A stretch of DNA of 64,000 nt, taken from the NCBI GenBank assembly GCA_035548815.1, contig DASZSF010000005.1, positions 182,177-246,176 of the forward strand, given 5' to 3'. This DNA is from Minisyncoccota bacterium (GTDB taxonomy: Bacteria; Patescibacteriota; Minisyncoccia; Phycocordibacterales; SBAW01). Below are positions 2,655-37,518 of the stretch, piece after piece (position 1 is the stretch's first letter; each line of letters starts with the position of its first letter). Both the position numbers and the translations under genes were made by a program. Under the pieces are notes generated by a model. It saw only the letters and a list, made by a program, of their open reading frames with translations, made no database searches and was not told where the DNA came from.

Positions 2655-4517
2655 ATGCAGCAGATACGAAACTTTAGCATCATAGCCCATATAGACCACG
2701 GCAAGTCGACCCTTGCCGACCGTTTGCTTGAGGTCACGGGCACCATAGAAAAGCGCAAAATGCGCGACCAGGTGCTCGATTCCATGGACTTGGAGCGTGA
2801 GCGCGGCATTACCATCAAAATGCAGCCGGTGCGTATGCGCTACAAGCACGGCGGACAGGAGTATTTGCTGCACCTCATCGACACGCCGGGCCACATCGAT
2901 TTTTCATATGAGGTATCACGCGCGCTCACTGCCGTTGAAGGCGCAGTGTTGCTTGTGGATGCAACGCAGGGTGTGCAGGCGCAGACGCTTACAACGCTCC
3001 GCACAGCCCAAGAACTTGGACTCGTCATAATTCCAGCGCTTTCAAAAATCGACTCGCCTCTGGCAAATGTCGACGATGTGCGCGACCAGGTCGCGTTGCT
3101 TTTAGATATCGACCCATCCGAAGTCCTTCTTTGTTCTGGCCGCACAGGAGAGGGTGTTGAGACTTTGCTTCAGGCTGTTATTGACCGGGTGCCACCGCCA
3201 CGAGAGGGCAATTCTGTTTCTGAGAAAAAGGTAGGCGGGGGCGGCCAAACTGCGGAGCAGTTTGGGGATAAGCCTTTTTCGAAGGAACAGAATGGACCTC
3301 GAGGATTAGTGTTCGACTTCCAATATTCAGACCACCAGGGCGTGATAGTGTACTTGCGCATGTTCGACGGGCAGGTGAAGAAAGGCGATAGGCTTGAGTT
3401 TGCTGCGACGGGCCGCAATTTTATTGCGCTTGAAGTGGGGAGTTTTTCTCCCAAGCCAGTGCCCCTGCCGGAAGGGTTAGGTGCGGGCTCTATTGGCTAC
3501 GTTGTCACAGGCATTAAAGAGCCGGGGTTGGCACGCGTCGGCGACACTGTACGCATGCAAGGTTCAAAAGTTACGCCTTTGTCGGGCTATGGCGAACCAA
3601 AGGCCGTTGTCTGGGCGTCTATATATCCCGAAAGTCAGGATGATTTTACGGCATTGCGCCAGGCCCTTGGGCGCCTGCGTCTTTCCGATTCCTCACTTTC
3701 ATTTGAAGAAGAATCATCAGGCATGCTCGGACGCGGCTTCCGTTGCGGACTCCTCGGCATGCTCCACTTGGAAATAGTCACCGAACGCTTGCGCCGAGAA
3801 GCAAATCTTTCGCTTGTTGTTACGACGCCGACCATCACCTATGAAGTAGAAACGCGGGACGGCAAGCGCCATACAGTATATTCTCCTGCGCAATTCCCAG
3901 AATACGGCGATATAAAAGAGGTGTGGGAGCCGTTCGTGTCGGCTGAAATTATTTTGCCAGCCGAATATATGGGCCCGCTTATGCCGCTGTTGTTCGAACA
4001 CGAAGTGGCGACCGAAAGCACTGAAAATTTTTCTGAAAGCCGCATGCGCGTAAAAGTAGTGATGCCGCTGCGCGAGCTCATGCGAAACTTTTTCGACAAA
4101 TTGAAGAGCGTTTCTTCAGGCTATGCATCAATTTCATACGAACTGCGCGAACTTCGTCTGGCCGACGTTGCGCGGCTCGACATGTACGTTGCGGAAGAAA
4201 TCGTGCCAGCATTTTCCCGCATTATCGCAAAGCATCGCGCTGACGAAGAGGCAATAGCGGCAGTAGAAAAACTCTACAAAATTCTGCCGCGCCAAAACTT
4301 TGCAACCAAAATTCAGGCAATGGCATTGGGACGCATTGTTTCGTCACGCACGCTTTCAGCAATGTCCAAAGATGTCACCCAGCACATGTACGGCGGCGAC
4401 ATTACCCGCAAAATGAAGCTCCGCGAAAAGCAAAAGAAAGGCAAAAAGCGCATGCTCGAACGCGGCCGCGTCAACATCCCAGAGGACGTCTTCCTCAAAA
4501 TGATCCAGAGCGACTAG
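2655..4517 (+). CDS. lepA: Elongation factor 4 (LepA)
   Basis: [20 protein letters not shown] and NKID-type GTPase motifs plus a LepA C-terminal region. Carries a Gly-rich insertion (VGGGGQTAEQFGDKPF...). Confidence 0.9.
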   Translation: MQQIRNFSIIAHIDHGKSTLADRLLEVTGTIEKRKMRDQVLDSMDLERERGITIKMQPVRMRYKHGGQEYLLHLIDTPGHIDFSYEVSRALTAVEGAVLLVDATQGVQAQTLTTLRTAQELGLVIIPALSKIDSPLANVDDVRDQVALLLDIDPSEVLLCSGRTGEGVETLLQAVIDRVPPPREGNSVSEKKVGGGGQTAEQFGDKPFSKEQNGPRGLVFDFQYSDHQGVIVYLRMFDGQVKKGDRLEFAATGRNFIALEVGSFSPKPVPLPEGLGAGSIGYVVTGIKEPGLARVGDTVRMQGSKVTPLSGYGEPKAVVWASIYPESQDDFTALRQALGRLRLSDSSLSFEEESSGMLGRGFRCGLLGMLHLEIVTERLRREANLSLVVTTPTITYEVETRDGKRHTVYSPAQFPEYGDIKEVWEPFVSAEIILPAEYMGPLMPLLFEHEVATESTENFSESRMRVKVVMPLRELMRNFFDKLKSVSSGYASISYELRELRLADVARLDMYVAEEIVPAFSRIIAKHRADEEAIAAVEKLYKILPRQNFATKIQAMALGRIVSSRTLSAMSKDVTQHMYGGDITRKMKLREKQKKGKKRMLERGRVNIPEDVFLKMIQSD

Positions 4518-10531: not shown

Positions 10532-11605
10532 TTATTTCGGGGCCAAAATCGAGAAGCGGTTGGAGTAGGCGCGAAGGGGCTCCTTAGCAACGTCGTCTAT
10601 GCCAGAAAGCGCCCGGGCAAGTGCCGCCTCGGCTATCATGACCGCGTTGTCGCCAGTAATTGCGAGGTTGGGGAGCCGGACTTCTACATTTGGGAATTCG
10701 TCTTCCAAAAACATCACCAGCCGTTCGCGTAGATATGTATTTGCAGCAACGCCGCCGCCGATCACGAATGTTTTTGCATCAGTTTCTTCAAGTGCGCGGC
10801 GTGTCTTTGCAACGAAGATGTCACCAACGGCAGTTTCAAACTCCAATGCAAATACCATCTTTTGCTCATGACTCAAATTTTGAACTCCGCCCATGTCGCG
10901 AAGTTTGTACAAAACTGCGGTTTTTAAACCAGAGAAAGAGACATTCAAATCTTTGTTATGCAACATGGGTCGCGGCAATTCCAAGTCAGAAGTCATATTT
11001 TCAACACGAGCTTGTTCAGCGAGCTTTGAAATCTGCGGGCCGCCGGGGTATGGGAGGCCGAGCATGCGTGCGACTTTGTCGAACGCTTCGCCAACAGCAT
11101 CGTCTTGCGTCTCGCCAATAACTTCGTAGTTGAACCATTCGCGCATTAATACGTATTCTGTGTGACCTCCTGAAATTAAAAGCCCCAAAACAGGGAGTTG
11201 AACATTTTCAAGCAAACCGTCTTGCACAAGTGATGAAATCAAGTGCCCTTCCATGTGATTAGCCGCAATAAGAGGCAAGTTTTTTTCTTTCGCTAAATTT
11301 TCTGCAAATGTAATGCCAGCCCAGAGCGCAGGTTCGAGCCCAGGCCCTTGTGTGACAGCGATAGCGTCTATGGGTTCGTCGCCAACATTTTTTAGAGCCT
11401 GTTCTAAAATGATAGGTAAATTCTTTTCATGTTCGCGCTTGGCTAGGTTAGGGTAGACGCCGCCAAATTCTGCATGCAATTTCGCCTGCGAGTTAAGGGC
11501 AAAGGCGCCGAGCTCTGCGAATGCAAAACCGTTCTCCGTTTTCGTTCCAGAAACAAGAGCTACGCCTGTCTCATCGCAGGATGTTTCAATAGCCAAAATA
11601 TTCAT
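10532..11605 (-). CDS. tsaD: tRNA N6-adenosine threonylcarbamoyltransferase TsaD
   Basis: MNILAIETSCDETGVALV and Kae1/TsaD family motifs throughout. Confidence 0.9.
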   Translation of the reverse strand: MNILAIETSCDETGVALVSGTKTENGFAFAELGAFALNSQAKLHAEFGGVYPNLAKREHEKNLPIILEQALKNVGDEPIDAIAVTQGPGLEPALWAGITFAENLAKEKNLPLIAANHMEGHLISSLVQDGLLENVQLPVLGLLISGGHTEYVLMREWFNYEVIGETQDDAVGEAFDKVARMLGLPYPGGPQISKLAEQARVENMTSDLELPRPMLHNKDLNVSFSGLKTAVLYKLRDMGGVQNLSHEQKMVFALEFETAVGDIFVAKTRRALEETDAKTFVIGGGVAANTYLRERLVMFLEDEFPNVEVRLPNLAITGDNAVMIAEAALARALSGIDDVAKEPLRAYSNRFSILAPK

Positions 11606-11609
11606 CGAG

Positions 11610-11682
11610 TGCGCGATACAGGACTCGAACCTGTGACCCTCCCCACGTCAAGGGGATGCTCTACCAACTGAGCTAACCGCGC
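11610..11682 (-). tRNA. tRNA-Val (anticodon GAC)
   Basis: Reverse complement reads GCGCGGTTAGCTCAGTTGGTAGAGCATCCCCTTGACGTGGGGAGGGTCACAGGTTCGAGTCCTGTATCGCGCA. Confidence 0.85.
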
Positions 11683-30107: not shown

Positions 30108-31412
30108 ATGAAAATGACCAACTTCCAACTTATTTTTACGGGAGCCTTCGTCTTTTTTATTGTGTGCGGCCTTGTCGCATTTTCTCTCTACACCACTAAA
30201 AGCAACAACATCGGCAATGTGGTCGTGTGGGGCACGCTTGACGGCGGCACGATGTCGAAGCTTATCAATGACCTTAGCCAACAGGACAAGTCGTATCAGA
30301 GCGTCACGTATGTCGAACGCCCAGCCGCTACATTTGTCAGCGACGTTATAAACGCAATGGCCAGTGGCACAGGGCCTGACCTTGTGCTCATAAGCCAAGA
30401 CCAGCTCAACGCCTTTTCTAACAAGCTTTCTGTCATTCCATACAGCGCGGTATCGCAGTCAACCTACGTCTCTTCCTACATTGCAGAAAGCCAGCTCTTC
30501 TTGACTGCTGATGGCGCCTTCGCATTGCCATTTGTTATAAATCCTATGGTCTTGTATTGGAATCGCAATCTCGTGTCTTCGGCAGGATTGGGGCAGCCGC
30601 CAAAATATTGGGACGACTTGCTTACAACCGCGCAGAAGCTTACGGTCTTAGATGCAAACAACAATGTCAAAAAGAGTGCCATAGCGATGGGCTCGTGGGA
30701 CAATGTTGCGTATGCAAAGCAAATAGTGGCAGCGCTCTTTATGCAGGCGGGGGACAGTATTACACAATACGACCAGACGGGTGCACTTAGGTCCGTATTT
30801 GGCCAAACACCACAGGGGGCTCCCGAAAATCCAGCATCGTCAGCGTTGCAGTTTTATACCGAGTTCGCCAACCCATCAAAAGTTACCTATTCGTGGAATC
30901 GCTCACTGCCCAAATCAACCGACGCATTTACAGCAGGGGATGCGGCTCTCTATGTTGGGTTTGCAAGCGACTATCCGGATCTTTTGTCGCGAAACCCTAA
31001 CTTAAATATCGGGGTAGCGCTCCTGCCCCAGATCCAGGGCAATAGTACCGCCCTTACGTTCGGGCAGCTTACCGGCATTGCCATTCCGCGCACGGCGTTT
31101 AACCCAACTGGTGCGCTTACTATAGCAGAGAAACTTTCGGGCGCGACAGCCGTTGGTGCAGCTGCGGCAGCGTTCGGGTTTCCACCTGTACGCCTTGATG
31201 TGCCGACAGACACGTCAGCCAATGCGGCACAGGCCGTCTTTTACCAGTCATCGCTTATTGCACGCGGCTGGATCGACCCCGACTATGCCGCGAGCGATGC
31301 TATATTTAGGACGATGGTGGATGCGGTGGTCAGCAACAAGTCATTGCCTGACACGGCGGTGCAAGATGCCGCGCAGTCTCTCCAGGCGCTCATATCACAC
31401 ACAGGACAATGA
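30108..31412 (+). CDS. Membrane-anchored extracellular solute-binding-protein-like protein (SBP_bac_1-like)
   Basis: N-terminal TM anchor, then a sugar-type SBP pattern: VVVWGTLDGG, PDLVLISQDQL, PFVINPMVLYWNRNLVSSAGL..PPKYWDDLLTTAQKL. Stop overlaps the next ATG by 4 nt. Confidence 0.55.
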   Translation: MKMTNFQLIFTGAFVFFIVCGLVAFSLYTTKSNNIGNVVVWGTLDGGTMSKLINDLSQQDKSYQSVTYVERPAATFVSDVINAMASGTGPDLVLISQDQLNAFSNKLSVIPYSAVSQSTYVSSYIAESQLFLTADGAFALPFVINPMVLYWNRNLVSSAGLGQPPKYWDDLLTTAQKLTVLDANNNVKKSAIAMGSWDNVAYAKQIVAALFMQAGDSITQYDQTGALRSVFGQTPQGAPENPASSALQFYTEFANPSKVTYSWNRSLPKSTDAFTAGDAALYVGFASDYPDLLSRNPNLNIGVALLPQIQGNSTALTFGQLTGIAIPRTAFNPTGALTIAEKLSGATAVGAAAAAFGFPPVRLDVPTDTSANAAQAVFYQSSLIARGWIDPDYAASDAIFRTMVDAVVSNKSLPDTAVQDAAQSLQALISHTGQ

Positions 31413-31792
31413 AAACACTAGGCTATATCTCAACCACTGTGACCTTGATGTGCATGCCGCTTATCGCAGAGGCAGCTGGTGGCGGTGTGGGATTCCAAAA
31501 TCCTCTCAATGCCAGCACCATTTGCGGGGCGCTGAAGATATTTTTGGATGGACTCATGGCCCTTGCCGTTCCTGTGGCGGTAGTATTTTTGGTCTACGCG
31601 GGCTTTTTATTTGTATGGGCACGTGGAAATCAAGAAGCGCTGACAAAGGCAAAGAAGAATCTTTTTTACACGGTACTGGGTATTGCGATCTTTATGGGCG
31701 CGTGGCTTTTAGGACAAGTTGTGGCAAACACCTTTAACAGCCTGGCGAGCGGTGCAGGACAGCCAAATTCCCAGATAGGGCAATGTCAATAA
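31409..31792 (+). CDS. TrbC/VirB2-like pilin-family small membrane protein (paralog 1)
   Basis: Signal peptide, two TM helices flanking a basic loop (VYAGFLFVWARGNQEA...GIAIFMGAWLLGQVV), and an AGGA RBS. Confidence 0.45.
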   Translation: MKTLGYISTTVTLMCMPLIAEAAGGGVGFQNPLNASTICGALKIFLDGLMALAVPVAVVFLVYAGFLFVWARGNQEALTKAKKNLFYTVLGIAIFMGAWLLGQVVANTFNSLASGAGQPNSQIGQCQ

Positions 31793-31793
31793 T

Positions 31794-32099
31794 ATGAATA
31801 CACTTTTAAGCGCAGGTGATACATTTAAAGATGTCATTTCCCGCCTCATAGGGCTAATGAACCTGCTCATCTGGCCGCTCATAGGGTTTGCGATTCTTTT
31901 CTTCTTTTATGCGCTTGTCCGCTTCGTTTTCAAAGGCGGAGATTCGAAAGCTCGGATACAAGGCCGTCAGGCAATCTTATGGAGCTTAATAGCACTATTC
32001 GTTCTCTTTTCACTCTGGGGACTTGTGAGATTGCTCCAGACAGCCGTGTTTGTTGGCACTCCGGCACAAGAGCTCCAGAGGGGCACACAGCCGCTATAA
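31794..32099 (+). CDS. TrbC/VirB2-like pilin-family small membrane protein (paralog 2)
   Basis: Same 2-TM architecture (LIGFAILFFFYALVRFVFKGGDSKAR...LFSLWGLVRLL). Starts 1 nt after the previous stop. Confidence 0.45.
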   Translation: MNTLLSAGDTFKDVISRLIGLMNLLIWPLIGFAILFFFYALVRFVFKGGDSKARIQGRQAILWSLIALFVLFSLWGLVRLLQTAVFVGTPAQELQRGTQPL

Positions 32100-32164
32100 T
32101 CTATCCACACGAGGGTCTTGTGCGGGTGAGTGCGCTTGTTACACTATAAGTATATTAATTTAGA

Positions 32165-32527
32165 ATGAGTATGAAGAAGATTACTTCGATAGGCCTCCTT
32201 TTCCTTGCAGTTGCGCCGTTTATTGCGTCAGCACAATTATCAAACGTCCGAACTCTCATTGGCGCAGTCGGGAGCATCATCAACATGCTCATCCCGCTTT
32301 TGGTGGGAGTAGCGATTCTCGCGTTCTTCTGGGGTCTTATTAAATATATAAGTGGGGGAAAGGGAATGAAGGCAGGGCGTAACACCATGATCGCCGGTAT
32401 TGTTTCGTTCTTCATCATGGTATCGCTCTACGGCATTGTAAACTTCGCAGGTTCAGCACTTGGTATCAACCAAAACGGCCAGGGTAATGCTGTTCGCCCG
32501 AATGCGCCATCTATCCCGACCCAGTAG
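32165..32527 (+). CDS. TrbC/VirB2-like pilin-family small membrane protein (paralog 3)
   Basis: Signal peptide plus two TM helices with a GGKGMKAGR loop. Confidence 0.45.
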   Translation: MSMKKITSIGLLFLAVAPFIASAQLSNVRTLIGAVGSIINMLIPLLVGVAILAFFWGLIKYISGGKGMKAGRNTMIAGIVSFFIMVSLYGIVNFAGSALGINQNGQGNAVRPNAPSIPTQ

Positions 32528-32872: not shown

Positions 32873-33337
32873 CTACGGCGGCAGGAGCTGGACGGAGCCA
32901 TTGAACTCCGTGTCCGCGGCCGCAACCGCTTCGATCGAATCCGGCATTGCCTGACACAGCCGGTTTGGATCTCGCAACTTTGGGTCGCAGATCAATATCT
33001 TGTCTTGATCTGCAGTTTTTCCCTTCTGCCAGACCCAGGCAAGGTGCCCCTGCAAGGTTAGACCCACCCTGCAGGTGCCCGATGGGTTCACCACGGTGCG
33101 AACCATGGTGAACCGCATGTTCCGCTGTACGCTGTCGCAGGCGGCGTTTGGCGTCTGCGACTGATTGGCTGTTGGGGGCCAGGCACCGGAATCCACAATC
33201 GCCATTCCCCAGATAAGGCAGCCAAAGAATATCAGGCCCCCTATCGCTAGGCCAACTACCATCATCATGCGAGACGCTCTCCGCGATGCAGCGACCATCA
33301 GCGGCGGAGCGAGACGGCTTGCATGTACGGGGTCCAT
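32873..33337 (-). CDS. Hypothetical membrane-anchored Cys-containing protein (GC3-rich)
   Basis: 154 aa with an N-terminal TM and 6 Cys in the soluble part. Its ATG overlaps the upstream stop (TAATG), indicating an operon. Confidence 0.45.
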   Translation of the reverse strand: MDPVHASRLAPPLMVAASRRASRMMMVVGLAIGGLIFFGCLIWGMAIVDSGAWPPTANQSQTPNAACDSVQRNMRFTMVRTVVNPSGTCRVGLTLQGHLAWVWQKGKTADQDKILICDPKLRDPNRLCQAMPDSIEAVAAADTEFNGSVQLLPP

Positions 33338-34560
33338 TAGTGGTCTCCTCCGTGATTGTCATGGCCGTGGTTACCGTTGGAGTCGTTTTTCTTGCCGCCT
33401 CCAAACGCTGCTGCCAAGCCTGCGGCAAAGGCGCCGAAGCCTCCGCCGATGTGCTTGGCTGTTTCAGTGGCTTCGGAATTGGTTTCAACCCGGATGATTC
33501 TCACATCCCGGTTGATGCCCTTTTCCTTGGCATTCAGCATCACTTTGTCCATTTCGTCCTGGAAGGTCGTCGTTGGCTTGCCGTCTACCATCGAGGCTTC
33601 GACATTCTTTCTTGCTGTACGTCGATAGATTTCCATCGTGATTTCGCCCTCGCGAGCTTCAGCATAGTCTGTCGGCAGCTTGAGAGTCCCAAGCACGACA
33701 CGTTCTACGGTTGCCCCGTATTGTTCTTCAAAGCTGCTGCCGCGCACGTCCCTGTCTTTGGGTTGTGAGGCTGCGAGGCCTGACTGGCCAGCCGGAGCCA
33801 CTTGTTCCGTGCCCGCAAGCGCTTCGATGAGCGATACCTGGATGTCAGGAATCTTGGCTGACAGCTCGTCCATGGTAACCTTGGCGACCTGTTCGCGCGC
33901 GTCGCTCTCGAAGATATCCAACGCTCCTTCGTTGATTGTTTCTGTTGAGTGGCTGATGTGCACCAACAGCAGCGGACCGAATGTACGCCAACGAACCGTC
34001 GGCTCGGGGAAGGTGGCGGTCAGCCCGTCCATTGTGGGGAACGAGATGGACCGGCCGAACGTACTACTTCGAAGCGATATGTAGTCGGTGTCCGGATTCA
34101 CAACCTCCCACGGCAAGCGGATATTGAACCAGCCTTGTGTAAATACATGCACGCGGCCGGTGAATATGTCCATCGCCATCGCTGCAGTCACTTTTGGCAC
34201 GGGCACCGACAGGTACCACGTGATGCATGAAAACTCAGCGATGAATAGACCGAGCGCCATTCCAATCCGGATTTTCGGTGGGAAGACGACCAGAAGATTC
34301 ATGATGTACGCATCGGGCACCAACACGATGAGCCCGATGACTGCCCATATGAGCAGTCGATCCCATGTATTCCCGGCTTTGCCGGTTATCTTGAGGCCAT
34401 AGCGCATGGCGATTTCTTGAAGCTCTGCCGGAGTTTTCTTTTGGATTCCGGCAGACTGAGAGGTTGGCATGGCTGGCGAATTCTTCGCCGAAGGCCATGC
34501 ATAGACAGCGCACGCAGCCGCGACGGCCACGAGCGAGAGGATGATGATAGGCAGAAGCAT
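33337..34560 (-). CDS. Membrane protein with possible SPFH/band-7-like domain and Gly/His-rich tail (GC3-rich)
   Basis: N-terminal TM helices, a GRVHVFTQGWFNIRLPWEVV segment resembling stomatin GRxxxxGPGLxFIxP, a coiled coil, and a C-terminal GGGFGAF...HGHDNHGGDH. Start placed at MLLP, which has a GAAAGGGG RBS. Confidence 0.4.
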   Translation of the reverse strand: MLLPIIILSLVAVAAACAVYAWPSAKNSPAMPTSQSAGIQKKTPAELQEIAMRYGLKITGKAGNTWDRLLIWAVIGLIVLVPDAYIMNLLVVFPPKIRIGMALGLFIAEFSCITWYLSVPVPKVTAAMAMDIFTGRVHVFTQGWFNIRLPWEVVNPDTDYISLRSSTFGRSISFPTMDGLTATFPEPTVRWRTFGPLLLVHISHSTETINEGALDIFESDAREQVAKVTMDELSAKIPDIQVSLIEALAGTEQVAPAGQSGLAASQPKDRDVRGSSFEEQYGATVERVVLGTLKLPTDYAEAREGEITMEIYRRTARKNVEASMVDGKPTTTFQDEMDKVMLNAKEKGINRDVRIIRVETNSEATETAKHIGGGFGAFAAGLAAAFGGGKKNDSNGNHGHDNHGGDH

Positions 34561-34733
34561 GTTGTCTACCCCTTTCTCAAAGGTCTGTGCGGCAGCGCCG
34601 CAGCGTGGTGAATGTCTGTCCATTCCAGAGCCGAAGCCATGGATGGTATTCCTTAGAATTATATCACAATAAAAGCTCTTTTGTCAAGCTAAAAAAGATA
34701 CAGAAAATAAGCGTTTTTTGGAAATTTGACGAG

Positions 34734-34815
34734 TGCTGGGGAGAGGACTTGAACCTCCATGGATTGCTCCGCCTGCTCCTAAGGCAGGTGCGTATACCAA
34801 TTCCGCCACCCCAGC
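34734..34815 (-). tRNA. tRNA-Leu (anticodon TAG)
   Basis: Reverse complement reads GCTGGGGTGGCGGAATTGGTATACGCACCTGCCTTAGGAGCAGG + long variable arm + GGAGG-TTCAAGT-CCTCT CCCCAGC A. Confidence 0.85.
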
Positions 34816-34829
34816 ATATGTGTAAACGG

Positions 34830-34902
34830 TGCGCCCACGAGGGCTCGAACCTCGGACCATCTCCTTAAGAGGGAGTTGCTCTACCAACTGAGCTATGGGC
34901 GC
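34830..34902 (-). tRNA. tRNA-Lys (anticodon CTT)
   Basis: Reverse complement reads GCGCCCATAGCTCAGTTGGTAGAGCAACTCCCTCTTAAGGAGATGGTCCGAGGTTCGAGCCCTCGTGGGCGCA. Confidence 0.8.
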
Positions 34903-34933
34903 GAACAGCAAAACAATACCATTAATTTTTATT

Positions 34934-35800
34934 TTAAAAAAGCCTGCCTTTTTGGAATCGCCATACTATTGGCGGGTAGGTAATGTAGCGTTCCACAAAG
35001 TGGGATTTAAATGTAGAGAATCCTTTCCATTCACGCGGTTCGCCTGGTTGCCAAAAATACATGAAGACAAGATTTTTAATGCCGCGTTTTAGCGAGTCTT
35101 TAAACCAATAGTCAACGAGCCCTGTCATTGCTTCTGTGCTGCGTGCCTCTTCGTATATAAACGTGCACATACGGGTGGTGCTATTGTACGTCGGGGAGGT
35201 AATGATAGCGTTTCCTGCAACTATAGCGTTTGTTTCATTATTTTCCACAACAAAAAATTCTATATGCGGCCGCACTTCTGGTAATGCATACTGGCGTCCA
35301 AGCGTGGCAAGAAGGTAGACGCCGACGTGCTTGTAGGTACGGCTCTTTTTGTACGCCGCTTTGTACTCTTCGAATGACACATGTTTTATGGAATGCGTCC
35401 GCCCCAGATGTTTGTCCCACTTTTTTGCATTGCGTTGCGCGTCTTTGCTCCACCTAAGGCGGTAATTCGAGTCTGTGAGTTCAACCAAACCATCTTTCCG
35501 CCACGACTGTGGGCGCCATATACTGTGCCAATGCGGCGGGACGTCCGTGCGGCGCACGCGTTTCCACATTATTATTCTGTTATAGGCGAGCGCTCCAGAA
35601 TGAGCATGGGAAAGATCAGGTTCAGCATCGCCACTAAAGAGTTCAAAACATATAGGCCATAAACACCAACGGGTGCTCGTTGGTGTACGTTCGCGCCGGC
35701 ATATCGGCGGAGGCAGGGCTATCATGCCAAATTCAGGCCATAGTTCAGGCGGGGCGAACCACTCCGGCGCTGTCGTATCGTGCTCCTCTTCTGTCCCCAT
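34934..35800 (-). CDS. Fem/BioF2-like GNAT-fold acyltransferase family protein (paralog B)
   Basis: 288 aa with C-terminal ...WKGFSTFKSHFVE resembling the FemABX GxxxFKxxFG tail. Its ATG overlaps the upstream paralog stop (TAATG). Confidence 0.35.
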   Translation of the reverse strand: MGTEEEHDTTAPEWFAPPELWPEFGMIALPPPICRRERTPTSTRWCLWPICFELFSGDAEPDLSHAHSGALAYNRIIMWKRVRRTDVPPHWHSIWRPQSWRKDGLVELTDSNYRLRWSKDAQRNAKKWDKHLGRTHSIKHVSFEEYKAAYKKSRTYKHVGVYLLATLGRQYALPEVRPHIEFFVVENNETNAIVAGNAIITSPTYNSTTRMCTFIYEEARSTEAMTGLVDYWFKDSLKRGIKNLVFMYFWQPGEPREWKGFSTFKSHFVERYITYPPIVWRFQKGRLF

Positions 35801-36645
35801 TATTTTCTTAGTATAGTGCCGCGCAAAAATTTGAACAAAGGAGGTTGGTAGAGCAGGTAGTCTGTGACGAATTGCGCTTTGAAATGTGAGATGCCTTTTC
35901 CGCGTTTGGTGCCGCTCTCATGCGGCGGGACGAATGCTCCGAAATGGAGCACTTCAACATGGCGGGAAAGGGCGTCAGCGAACCAATGGTCAATGAGCCC
36001 GAGCATGACATTGTCCATGCGCTCTTCTTTGAGATAAAAACCGCAGCTGTATGCGCTTGCGCGTCCTTTGCAGCCATCAAACACGGCATGGCCTCCCACT
36101 ATGACGCCGTCGCGTATGCGCTCTGCTCCCCACATCTGTACAGAATCAGGGAATCGCTCAAGGCGAGCTTGTAATTTTTTGAGCTCGTATGTCGGTATCT
36201 CAGAGGCGACGGTGCTTTTGCTATATGCCCGAGCGAACTCATCAAATGAAAGGGAGATTACTCTATATTTTTTATCGAGCAATTCGTCGCGCCACTTTTT
36301 TCGATAGTAGCGAGCAGTTTTTGACCAGCGGGTGAAATAACCGGGCGCGAGCTTGTGATAGCCGATATATATGGACGAGCGTAGCCAGGGTAGCTGCAAC
36401 CATCCGCGCGGCACATCCATGCGCGTTCTCCGATGCCAAACGGCGATGCGGTTTGGACCAGGCGGCGTGTCATGAAGAAGGGGTTCGGTGTTGCTCCGAT
36501 ACTCTTCAAAATATATGGGCCATATGCCATATCGCGCACCGACGGGTGATGCGCCAACAGGCTCTGGTTTTGTAGTGTCTCTAAAGAGTCGGTAGAACAG
36601 ATATTCGGGCCATTCAAAAAGAGAGAGCAGGCGACTATCTTCCAT
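35800..36645 (-). CDS. Fem/BioF2-like GNAT-fold acyltransferase family protein (paralog A)
   Basis: Paralog of 34934..35800 with C-terminal ...GKGISHFKAQFVT. Start abuts the 3' end of tRNA-Leu(TAA). Confidence 0.35.
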   Translation of the reverse strand: MEDSRLLSLFEWPEYLFYRLFRDTTKPEPVGASPVGARYGIWPIYFEEYRSNTEPLLHDTPPGPNRIAVWHRRTRMDVPRGWLQLPWLRSSIYIGYHKLAPGYFTRWSKTARYYRKKWRDELLDKKYRVISLSFDEFARAYSKSTVASEIPTYELKKLQARLERFPDSVQMWGAERIRDGVIVGGHAVFDGCKGRASAYSCGFYLKEERMDNVMLGLIDHWFADALSRHVEVLHFGAFVPPHESGTKRGKGISHFKAQFVTDYLLYQPPLFKFLRGTILRK

Positions 36646-36730
36646 GGTGCCGGGGGTGGGAATCGAACCCACACGACCTTGCGGTCTGGGGATTTTAAGT
36701 CCCCTATGTCTACCATTTCATCACCCCGGC
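36645..36730 (-). tRNA. tRNA-Leu (anticodon TAA), CCA encoded
   Basis: Reverse complement reads GCCGGGGTGATGAAATGGTAGACATAGGGGACTTAAAATCCCC + long variable arm + GTGGG-TTCGATT-CCCAC CCCCGGC A CCA. Confidence 0.85.
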
Positions 36731-36736
36731 AAAAAC

Positions 36737-36811
36737 TGGAGGCCACGGAGGGATTCGCACCCTCGCATAACGGTTTTGCAGACCGTCGCGTTGCTTCTTC
36801 GCCACGTGGCC
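36737..36811 (-). tRNA. tRNA-Cys (anticodon GCA), CCA encoded
   Basis: Reverse complement reads GGCCACGTGGCGAAGAAGCAACGCGACGGTCTGCAAAACCGT...GAGGG-TGCGAAT-CCCTC CGTGGCC T CCA. Confidence 0.8.
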
Positions 36812-36930: not shown

Positions 36931-37518
36931 ATGTCAGTATCAGAAATTATTGGCGGCCTTCCCGTCATCTCAAGTGTCTTGGATCACGGCCCGCTTGTTG
37001 CGGCGTTCGCGACCTTCTTCGTTATGTTCGGGGTTACGTATCCGCTCATATGTTGGGAATGGGGATACTGGCTCCCACTGCGGCGCCTGTATCTCAACTT
37101 CCTGGTATGCGACGCGTTCGTGTACCCTGGCTATATGGCAGTAGCGGCGAGCGTCTTGGCAGATGCCGACCCCGGCAATTTCTGGGCAAGCTCTTCCTGG
37201 CATTGGAGCGTGCTGATTTTGGGCACAGTGCTTTCGCTGGCGGTTTGCTGGTGGGAGATGCGCATAGAAAAGTATCCGCTCGATGTACAGCTGGAGCCCT
37301 GGAAGATCTGGCACACGCTCACGTTCCCAATAGCTTTTTACTGGATCGTGAGTACGCTTCCCATCGTCTTGTTGCAGGGCAAGCTTTGGGCTATTTGTGC
37401 CGTGGTGTCAGGAGCTCTGCTTTTCCTAGCCACGTCGGTGCTCGATGGCTGGCTGCCAGGTACACAGAAAGCTCAACGCCGGCTCATGCAGGTGTTGAGT
37501 TCAATAGGAGTCCTATGA
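36931..37518 (+). CDS. Hypothetical polytopic membrane protein
   Basis: 195 aa with about 6 predicted TM helices and a GGAGG RBS. Confidence 0.45.
   Translation: MSVSEIIGGLPVISSVLDHGPLVAAFATFFVMFGVTYPLICWEWGYWLPLRRLYLNFLVCDAFVYPGYMAVAASVLADADPGNFWASSSWHWSVLILGTVLSLAVCWWEMRIEKYPLDVQLEPWKIWHTLTFPIAFYWIVSTLPIVLLQGKLWAICAVVSGALLFLATSVLDGWLPGTQKAQRRLMQVLSSIGVL

Follow-up and report, generated by a model that had tools for sequence, protein, structure and literature searches.

What do two tandem genes encode that lie between two pairs of tRNA genes, the first of them starting on the very nucleotide at which a tRNA gene ends, and does this neighbourhood reflect the chemistry of their products? The question is raised by a locus in a 64,000-nucleotide (nt) stretch of DNA from a Minisyncoccota bacterium (contig DASZSF010000005.1, positions 182,177 to 246,176; hereafter the window), in which six minus-strand genes follow one another in the order tRNA-Cys(GCA), tRNA-Leu(UAA), open reading frame (ORF) A, ORF B, tRNA-Lys(CUU) and tRNA-Leu(UAG). 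Predicted structures and family comparisons indicate that ORF A and ORF B encode paralogous, soluble and basic double-GNAT enzymes of the FemABX type, members of a family that is new to current models and that is found almost only in Patescibacteria. We think it probable that both proteins transfer aminoacyl groups from aminoacyl-tRNA to an amine acceptor. The features of the locus are as follows.

36946–36973, minus strand: promoter-like site TTGAGA-16-AATAAT, 10/12 to consensus in a consensus scan; a weak candidate promoter of the whole unit
36737–36811, minus strand: tRNA-Cys(GCA), first in the unit (ARAGORN; Rfam RF00005, 62.2 bits)
36645–36730, minus strand: tRNA-Leu(UAA), CCA encoded (ARAGORN; Rfam RF00005, 59.9 bits, the match ending at the discriminator, 36648)
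35800–36645, minus strand: ORF A, 281 amino acids, predicted Fem-fold double-GNAT protein of the 'A-type' paralog clade (ORF list; AlphaFold2; Foldseek)
36280–36321, minus strand: conserved basic helix of ORF A, residues 109–122, KTARYYRKKWRDEL; candidate tRNA acceptor-stem-binding helix (AlphaFold2 model)
35869–35889, minus strand: candidate catalytic motif of ORF A, S253-H-F255-K256-A-Q-F259 (family conservation and Sbb17/Sba18 alignment)
34934–35800, minus strand: ORF B, 288 amino acids, ATG start, predicted Fem-fold double-GNAT protein of the 'B-type' (main) clade (ORF list; AlphaFold2)
34997–35017, minus strand: candidate catalytic motif of ORF B, S262-T-F264-K265-S-H-F268 (invariant columns as in ORF A)
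34828–34902, minus strand: tRNA-Lys(CUU), 31 nt downstream of ORF B (ARAGORN; Rfam RF00005, 68.4 bits)
34733–34815, minus strand: tRNA-Leu(UAG), last in the unit (ARAGORN; Rfam RF00005, 58.1 bits)

The unit is tightly packed, with successive spacers of 6, −1, −1, 31 and 12 nt from tRNA-Cys to tRNA-Leu(UAG), and the four tRNAs have a canonical appearance (58–68 bits with Rfam). An initial annotation of this DNA had placed the two genes between tRNA-Leu(TAG)/tRNA-Lys and tRNA-Leu(TAA)/tRNA-Cys, with the first start codon abutting the encoded CCA and the two reading frames overlapping in TAATG, and ARAGORN, Rfam and the reading frames agree with it on all three points. The CCA of tRNA-Leu(UAA) occupies 36647–36645 and the ATG of ORF A 36645–36643 (...CCCCCGGCACCATGG); because the Rfam match ends at the discriminator, this ATG overlaps the last A of the CCA, which is common to both. 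The stop codon of ORF A and the start codon of ORF B likewise have nucleotide 35800 in common, within ...AAAATAATGGGG... The longest form of ORF A (35800–36672) begins with a GTG inside the tRNA gene, and the ATG at 36645 gives the 281-residue protein. In an NCBI-sourced record (P0001) ORF A has only 206 amino acids, starting from Met76 and missing most of the first GNAT domain; because homologs span 94–97% of the 281-residue form, this call is truncated, and its start was presumably chosen to dodge the overlap with tRNA-Leu(UAA). The sequence of ORF B is the same as that of a 'hypothetical protein' listed by NCBI for a Candidatus Paceibacterota metagenome-assembled genome (MAG). Both are real genes, with homologs down to 25% identity in 335 clusters, and the 32% identity that they share over 277 residues (BLASTP, E = 8e-38) shows a paralogy far beyond chance. 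A phage origin was rejected, there being no phage homolog and an unremarkable GC content.

The initial annotation had also described the proteins as GNAT-like in size, with C-terminal tails that recall FemABX-type transferases. A single GNAT domain has about 160 amino acids, and the roughly 285 residues of each protein fit a double GNAT domain; on the matter of size the initial annotation has to be corrected. AlphaFold2 models, built with family alignments, have a predicted local distance difference test score (pLDDT) of 82 and a predicted template modelling score (pTM) of 0.79 for ORF A, and of 91 and 0.88 for ORF B. Both models show two GNAT domains forming a cleft, which is the Fem-type double-GNAT fold and not an unrelated one. 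With the ORF A model, each of the top 27 Foldseek matches (E = 7e-12 to 1e-7) is either an aminoacyl-tRNA-dependent enzyme or a DUF2156 relative of these enzymes, the best being Sba18 and Sbb17 (E = 7e-12). The fold ranking for ORF B follows the same order, with values of 18.3, 18.0, 17.6, 16.8, 15.5 and 13.7 versus at most 11.8 for coenzyme A (CoA)-dependent GNATs, and single-domain GNATs align over 105–142 residues only. Neither model contains the coiled-coil helical arm of S. aureus FemA and FemX, the longest helix having about 15 residues. Both proteins are basic (isoelectric points of 9.3–9.6) and are predicted to be soluble and cytoplasmic, no transmembrane segment having been found in either. 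At the start of the second domain of ORF A a confidently modelled helix (residues 109–122, pLDDT about 96) has 57–80% lysine or arginine in columns 112, 113 and 115–117 among 89 family members. A positively charged helix in GNAT domain 2 of Weissella viridescens FemX (FemX_Wv) has been proposed to bind tRNA (PMC12945691), and by analogy we infer that the basic helix of ORF A could be its counterpart and a candidate binder of the acceptor stem.

The resemblance of the C-terminal tails (GKGISHFKAQFVT in ORF A and WKGFSTFKSHFVE in ORF B) to those of FemABX enzymes is supported by the family comparison. S253, F255, K256 and F259 (ORF A numbering) are conserved in 98–99% of the 89 family members and are kept by both paralogs, and in a sequence alignment F255/K256 of ORF A and F264/K265 of ORF B line up with the RFK of Sbb17 and Sba18, which are solved aminoacyl-tRNA-dependent peptide synthases. 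A profile of the C-terminal domain, searched against the whole PDB, matches only Sbb17 and Sba18 (E = 0.2–0.5), the alignment covering the whole second GNAT domain together with the motif G-F/I-S/N-x-F-K-x-x-F-G (GINRFKLGF in Sbb17 and Sba18). In FemX_Wv, F304 and K305 are essential and catalytic (PMC4964394), and K329 of DhpH-C, the equivalent of FemX_Wv Lys305, is likewise essential (PMC12945691). A regular-expression search of ORF A and ORF B for the Q/RxxGxG/A motif that binds the CoA pyrophosphate (motif A) was negative.

Family models relate only faintly to these proteins. The FemABX model (PF02388) matches neither ORF A nor ORF B, and it gives sub-threshold matches to only 2 of the 89 family members, with a best E-value of 0.006. 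ORF A and ORF B are without a match to PF13480 (Acetyltransf_6, FemAB-like GNAT; gathering threshold 22 bits); sub-threshold matches at E ≤1 are seen in 21 of the 89 (best E = 2e-5), and fused family members score 13.8–19 bits. The relationship of the family to PF13480 is, at the level of sequence, a distant one. Searches of PDB sequences with the single sequences and with full-length profiles returned insignificant matches only. GNAT toxins that acetylate aminoacyl-tRNA (e.g. TacT, AtaT and ItaT) are single-domain, CoA-dependent proteins of about 170 amino acids that are paired with antitoxins, and this identity was rejected for the double-domain ORF A and ORF B.

From the fold and the motif we would expect each enzyme to bind the acceptor end of an aminoacyl-tRNA and to hand its aminoacyl group on to a second substrate, at a primary amine, with the invariant lysine of the S-x-F-K-x-x-F motif in the role of Lys305 of the Weissella FemX. 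Candidate amines would include a polyamine-like compound, a peptidoglycan stem-peptide amine and a protein amine.

The strongest functional clue as to the acceptor is a recurrent partner. An exhaustive profile search gave 335 cluster representatives of the family, and the genomic loci, which were retrieved with a B-type-only alignment as query, come almost entirely from Patescibacteria (Adler-, Kaiser- and Nomurabacteria and 'Paceibacterota'). Three loci (L021, L024 and L002) are from MAGs labelled Gammaproteobacteria, Pseudomonadales or Verrucomicrobiae, and judging by gene content these may be mis-binned or mislabelled contigs of the Candidate Phyla Radiation (CPR). Among the best 149 of the 335 representatives, 62 are longer than 370 amino acids and 50 carry an additional domain of about 200 amino acids, which is N-terminal in 48 and C-terminal in 2; a fusion to this spermidine-synthase-like (SpeE-like) domain is estimated for about 40% of the top-scoring members. 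The domain matches Pfam Spermine_synth near threshold and, with E = 1e-15 to 1e-11 (42–57 bits, versus cut-offs of 260–304), models of polyamine aminopropyltransferases in NCBIfam, and its profile matches about 30 solved spermidine/thermospermine synthases (E = 2e-15 to 7e-7) as well as the C-terminal domain of METTL13 (E = 5e-14). A separate SpeE-like gene adjoins the Fem-like gene in four loci (L005, L007, L022 and L025) and lies within the four-tRNA bracket in two others (L016 and L017).

The SpeE-like domain retains invariant nucleotide-binding residues (G-x-G-x-G-G, E89, D116 and D134), with L-G-L-G-x-G-G in place of GGGDG, a glycine replacing the aspartate, and D-L-F-x-G in place of DSSDP, the second aspartate being missing. 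In SpeE structures the aspartate of GGGDG excludes the carboxylate of S-adenosylmethionine (SAM). Because of these two replacements the cosubstrate may be SAM rather than decarboxylated SAM (dcSAM), and the reaction may be other than aminopropyl transfer. In another CPR lineage a truncated gene related to metK lies directly downstream of the Fem-like gene or pair in about eight loci, as follows.

L026, 5852–6736; L002, 6852–7733; L056, 7553–8548; about five more loci: truncated, divergent MetK-like protein of 294–331 amino acids

It has partial S-AdoMet synthetase N and M domains (TIGR01034, E = 2e-24, 86 bits versus a 309-bit cut-off) and belongs to a conserved block of UvrD, Fem, MetK-like, PPIase, Peptidase_C39_2, Gmad2 and PGA_cap genes; it could be a second pointer, less strong than the first, to chemistry that involves SAM, or could simply reflect synteny. 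Nearby solute-binding proteins were considered as PotD-like (polyamine) proteins and rejected as such, being of sugar type in appearance (GanS, MalE, UgpB).

Because B-type proteins are fused or adjacent to the SpeE-like transferase in many relatives, the acceptor or the product is probably an amine that is also alkylated by this SAM- or dcSAM-dependent partner. We tentatively put forward, as a possibility that falls well short of the aminoacyl transfer itself in likelihood, a CPR-specific two-enzyme module in which a Fem-like aminoacyl transferase and a SpeE-like alkyl transferase would make an aminoacylated and alkylated amine, expressed in Paceibacteria from a tRNA-punctuated, essentially leaderless mRNA whose operon would supply the candidate donor tRNAs for Leu, Lys and Cys. 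If this is true, the product could be, for example, an aminoacyl-polyamine or a modified amine of the cell envelope or of a protein.

In a sub-case of aminoacyl transfer, ORF A and ORF B would be Fem enzymes in the strict sense that branch peptidoglycan, and Paceibacteria would then possess an interpeptide bridge. In its favour, the two paralogs are arranged in an operon as in femAB (PMC4964394), both proteins are predicted to be soluble and cytoplasmic, and relatives encode Mur enzymes, with MurB and a Mur ligase 3–5 kbp from the Fem-like gene in one locus (L001). However, PF02388 does not match, about 70 loci show no conserved association with mur, fts or pbp genes, the recurrent SpeE-like partner has no known role in Fem chemistry, and the best Foldseek and sequence matches are to the small-molecule enzymes Sbb17 and Sba18, and we regard a role in peptidoglycan branching as rather unlikely.

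The initial annotation had found the tRNA neighbourhood suggestive, and the comparison of loci shows the bracket to be strongly conserved in one Paceibacteria clade. Among the loci of the B clade with enough flanking sequence, the Fem-like gene lies between tRNA-Leu(UAA) and tRNA-Lys(CUU) in 18 of 19, usually with tRNA-Cys just upstream of tRNA-Leu(UAA) and with tRNA-Leu(UAG) just downstream of tRNA-Lys(CUU); the position of tRNA-Cys(GCA) is kept in at least 16 related loci, and tRNA-Lys(CUU) comes after the Fem-like gene in 17. The bracket is kept despite inversion of tRNA-Cys or tRNA-Lys in several loci, despite four genes between tRNA-Cys and tRNA-Leu in L016 and L017, and where a SpeE-like gene or domain has been added inside it. 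In L020 (4480–7565) the fused SpeE-like/Fem-like gene even runs against all four tRNAs, yet it is still flanked by tRNA-Lys(ctt) and tRNA-Leu(taa), having been inverted in place within the bracket.

Of 16 loci, 11 have the ATG at −1 to +5 nt relative to the end that ARAGORN assigns to tRNA-Leu(UAA), and 13 have it no more than 19 nt away; this abutment points to co-transcription and to a nearly leaderless mRNA. Upstream of the unit the window has a single promoter-like site, that before tRNA-Cys (36973–36946); internal promoter-like sites are weak (9/12), the junction of tRNA-Leu(taa) and ORF A leaves no room for a promoter, and a search of the unit for terminator-like sites on the minus strand gave none. 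The simplest reading is that there is one transcript, from which tRNA processing frees an essentially leaderless A–B mRNA. ORF A and ORF B would thus be transcribed together with the four tRNA genes; cleavage after the discriminator of tRNA-Leu(UAA) would leave 5′-CCAUGG..., with a leader of 2 nt, tying synthesis of the enzymes to that of the tRNA, and the 1-nt overlap in TAATG would couple the translation of ORF A and ORF B. In other clades one Fem-like ORF directly adjoins tRNA-Pro and another begins 73 nt past tRNA-Ala. The former, in an unrelated clade (L070, 4025–4972), starts at 4097, the next nucleotide after tRNA-Pro(CGG) at 4025–4096, and abutment therefore recurs with a different tRNA.

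Several observations weigh against aminoacyl-tRNA-dependent transfer, or against parts of the scheme built on it. First, neither ORF A nor ORF B has a match at E ≤1 among the Pfam and NCBIfam models, the sequence link to Sbb17 is insignificant by itself (E = 0.2–1), and identity to solved Fem-type enzymes is 9–15%. Secondly, the partner domain may be no aminopropyltransferase at all, and neither a SpeE-like gene nor a further Fem-like copy is present in the 64-kbp window, so that the partner inference may not hold for the source genome. Thirdly, the tRNA bracket is part of a clade-wide gene order (ClpB, aminotransferase, IF-2, RbfA, tRNAs, Fem, tRNAs) and is absent from about 40 loci of other clades; being restricted to one clade and part of an order of genes that is conserved in general, it speaks for co-expression more than it proves a link to donor tRNAs. 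Fourthly, abutment may be a genome-wide habit rather than a Fem-specific one, because the gene for TsaD (tRNA t6A synthesis; 10532–11605, minus strand) also starts 3 nt after tRNA-Val(GAC) (11609–11682, minus strand). A GGAG, GAGG, AGGA or AAGG motif lies within 25 nt upstream of the start in just 14 of 65 window genes, so that Shine-Dalgarno-led initiation seems rare in the source genome, and the missing Shine-Dalgarno sequence before ORF A was rejected as a special feature. Finally, the tandem-GNAT superfamily also has CoA-dependent enzymes (MshD, 3tt2 and clavulanate ORF14), and the acyl donor is therefore not fixed by the fold match.

The last of these points opens the way to tRNA-independent, acyl-CoA-dependent tandem-GNAT N-acyltransferases acting on a polyamine or amino sugar, for which the tRNA neighbourhood would be inherited gene order. 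Polyamine acetyltransferases are GNATs, the partner domain is spermidine-synthase-like, and tRNA adjacency is missing outside one clade, but the Q/RxxGxG/A motif is lacking in both paralogs, the invariant motif resembles the FK of the Fem/Sbb17 type, and the fold ranking is unfavourable; CoA dependence is accordingly improbable. More doubtful still is a protein acceptor, by which ORF A and ORF B would be aminoacyl-tRNA-protein transferases or protein-lysine modifiers (compare L/F-transferase, ATE1 and the lysine extension of a translation factor) and a SpeE/METTL13-like partner would then alkylate the product. The best solved relative of the partner domain outside SpeE is indeed the C-terminal domain of METTL13, which methylates a protein N-terminal amine, and the locus lies beside the translation genes for IF-2 and RbfA. 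That neighbourhood, however, is clade-specific synteny, likeness to protein transferases is much weaker than that to Fem, Sbb17 and MprF, and there is no linked candidate target or ClpS-type partner.

The preferred interpretation, aminoacyl transfer to an amine, has also to account for the presence of two paralogs. In a neighbour-joining tree ORF B falls in the main clade, alongside genes that are single-copy in related genomes; its sisters are the fusions P0017 and P0033. ORF A falls in a small clade of unfused proteins only. On this interpretation ORF B is the ancestral, widespread form and ORF A a lineage-specific duplicate. The order A then B is found in all four loci for which there is downstream sequence (the window, L005, L025 and the P0006 contig), with a SpeE-like gene between the two in L005 and L025, and L001 has an A-type gene alone. 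Tandem Fem-like pairs with a 4-nt overlap occur in the lineage of L002, L026, L053 and L056, a duplication independent of that giving A and B. Relative to the family consensus, ORF A is changed at four conserved positions (W to V239, G to H242, W to G249 and D to N52) and has a two-residue insertion directly before the motif. Most relatives have one Fem-like gene in the same four-tRNA bracket, and an assignment of one paralog to each tRNA pair was rejected because single-copy relatives occupy that same bracket. Two substrate specificities, which the duplication had been taken to imply, are plausible for A and B. Given the recurrent duplication, the tight translational coupling and the retained candidate catalytic residues, we infer that both are active enzymes, probably working in succession or as a heterodimer by analogy with FemA and FemB. 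That one or both paralogs are instead non-catalytic tRNA-binding or regulatory subunits, e.g. sequestering the co-transcribed tRNAs or sensing their charging, is very improbable: both proteins are basic with a conserved basic helix, they are tightly co-expressed, and ORF A is off consensus at the four motif-flanking positions, but both keep all of the most highly conserved residues, including the S, F, K and F of the motif, and the protein is single-copy in most genomes and must there be an active enzyme.

Aminoacyl transferases with the Fem-type double-GNAT fold are a known kind of enzyme; new within the libraries and literature searched are the family itself, its near-restriction to the CPR, its SpeE-like fusion partner and its putative tRNA-punctuated expression, and our literature searches on the family in CPR, on Sbb17 and on links of SpeE-like proteins to aminoacyl-tRNA found nothing relevant. 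Non-ribosomal aminoacyl-tRNA-dependent transferases act in cell walls, lipid modification, protein tagging and antibiotics, and each new branch has so far brought new chemistry. The present family is missed by current models and annotated as 'hypothetical', and it is almost wholly confined to the uncultured Patescibacteria, about whose envelope and metabolism little is known. The repeated SpeE-like fusion predicts a testable two-step amine modification, and the unit would provide a bacterial example of tRNA-punctuated expression together with a short list of candidate donor tRNAs. Because ORF A and ORF B are small, soluble and confidently predicted, the hypothesis is testable in vitro without culturing.

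A few further observations concern the surroundings of the unit. Just downstream of tRNA-Leu(UAG) a site at 34658–34687 (minus strand) agrees perfectly with the sigma-70 consensus (TTGACA-18-TATAAT, extended TG present); it probably drives the next gene (33337–34623, minus strand) and marks the downstream end of the tRNA/Fem unit; that gene encodes a 428-residue membrane protein with a weak SPFH/Band 7 match. On the plus strand three small tandem genes (31409–32527), of which the first two match type IV secretion system pilin/TrbC-VirB2 and the third has no Pfam match, correspond in relatives to between two and four paralogs at the equivalent position (cluster c0), and they are followed by a gene for a sugar-type solute-binding protein (30108–31412) in a conserved block. 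Opposite tRNA-Lys (34829–34902, plus strand) an Rfam match to the Plastid-ycf2 5′ untranslated region, at 29.6 bits versus a cut-off of 65.7, is almost certainly spurious.

Among known systems the closest are the FemABX enzymes (S. aureus FemX, FemA and FemB and Weissella viridescens FemX; PF02388; EC 2.3.2.16-18 and 2.3.2.10), with which ORF A and ORF B share the missing CoA-binding motif, solubility, and the arrangement of tandem paralogs in one operon (femAB); their C-terminal F-K motif with its invariant lysine is a candidate counterpart of that of FemX_Wv. They differ in that identity is only 9–13%, PF02388 does not match and the coiled-coil arm is absent, although FemX_Wv and Sbb17 are armless as well, and the family differs in its near-restriction to Patescibacteria, its lack of linkage to cell-wall genes and its frequent SpeE-like fusion. 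The streptothricin-class peptide synthases Sbb17, Sba18 and Orf11 (PDB 9wqw, 9wqx and 9wqy) are alike in size (about 285–310 amino acids) and armless, and Orf11 passes Gly from Gly-tRNA to a small-molecule amine (PMC12945691). Their identity to ORF A and ORF B is 10–15%, no SpeE-like partner has been reported for them, and their genes lie in Streptomyces antibiotic clusters, whereas ORF A and ORF B are part of a tRNA operon in a reduced CPR genome and are not surrounded by a biosynthetic cluster. Structural likeness to the C-terminal domain of MprF/aaPGS (DUF2156) is weaker than that to Fem and Sbb17, and ORF A and ORF B have neither the membrane/flippase domain, nor a transmembrane segment, nor a Pfam match. 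As to the partner, homology to SpeE is significant and includes the N-terminal beta-hairpin region, but SpeE has about 280 amino acids versus about 200 in the partner domain, which has neither GGGDG nor DSSDP.

For the expression of the unit there are two precedents of tRNA–mRNA co-transcripts, the thrU-tyrU-glyT-thrT-tufB operon of E. coli and the 'tRNA punctuation' of mitochondria. The E. coli operon is alike in that a protein gene lies downstream of same-strand tRNAs with no promoter between. Its thrT and tufB are separated by some 100 nt of leader that includes a Shine-Dalgarno motif, in contrast to the gap of −1 to +5 nt in most of the Fem-like loci. Mitochondrial punctuation is alike in that there too the start codon lies directly at the 3′ end of a tRNA, and tRNA processing in the Fem-like unit would make the 5′ end of the mRNA in the same way.

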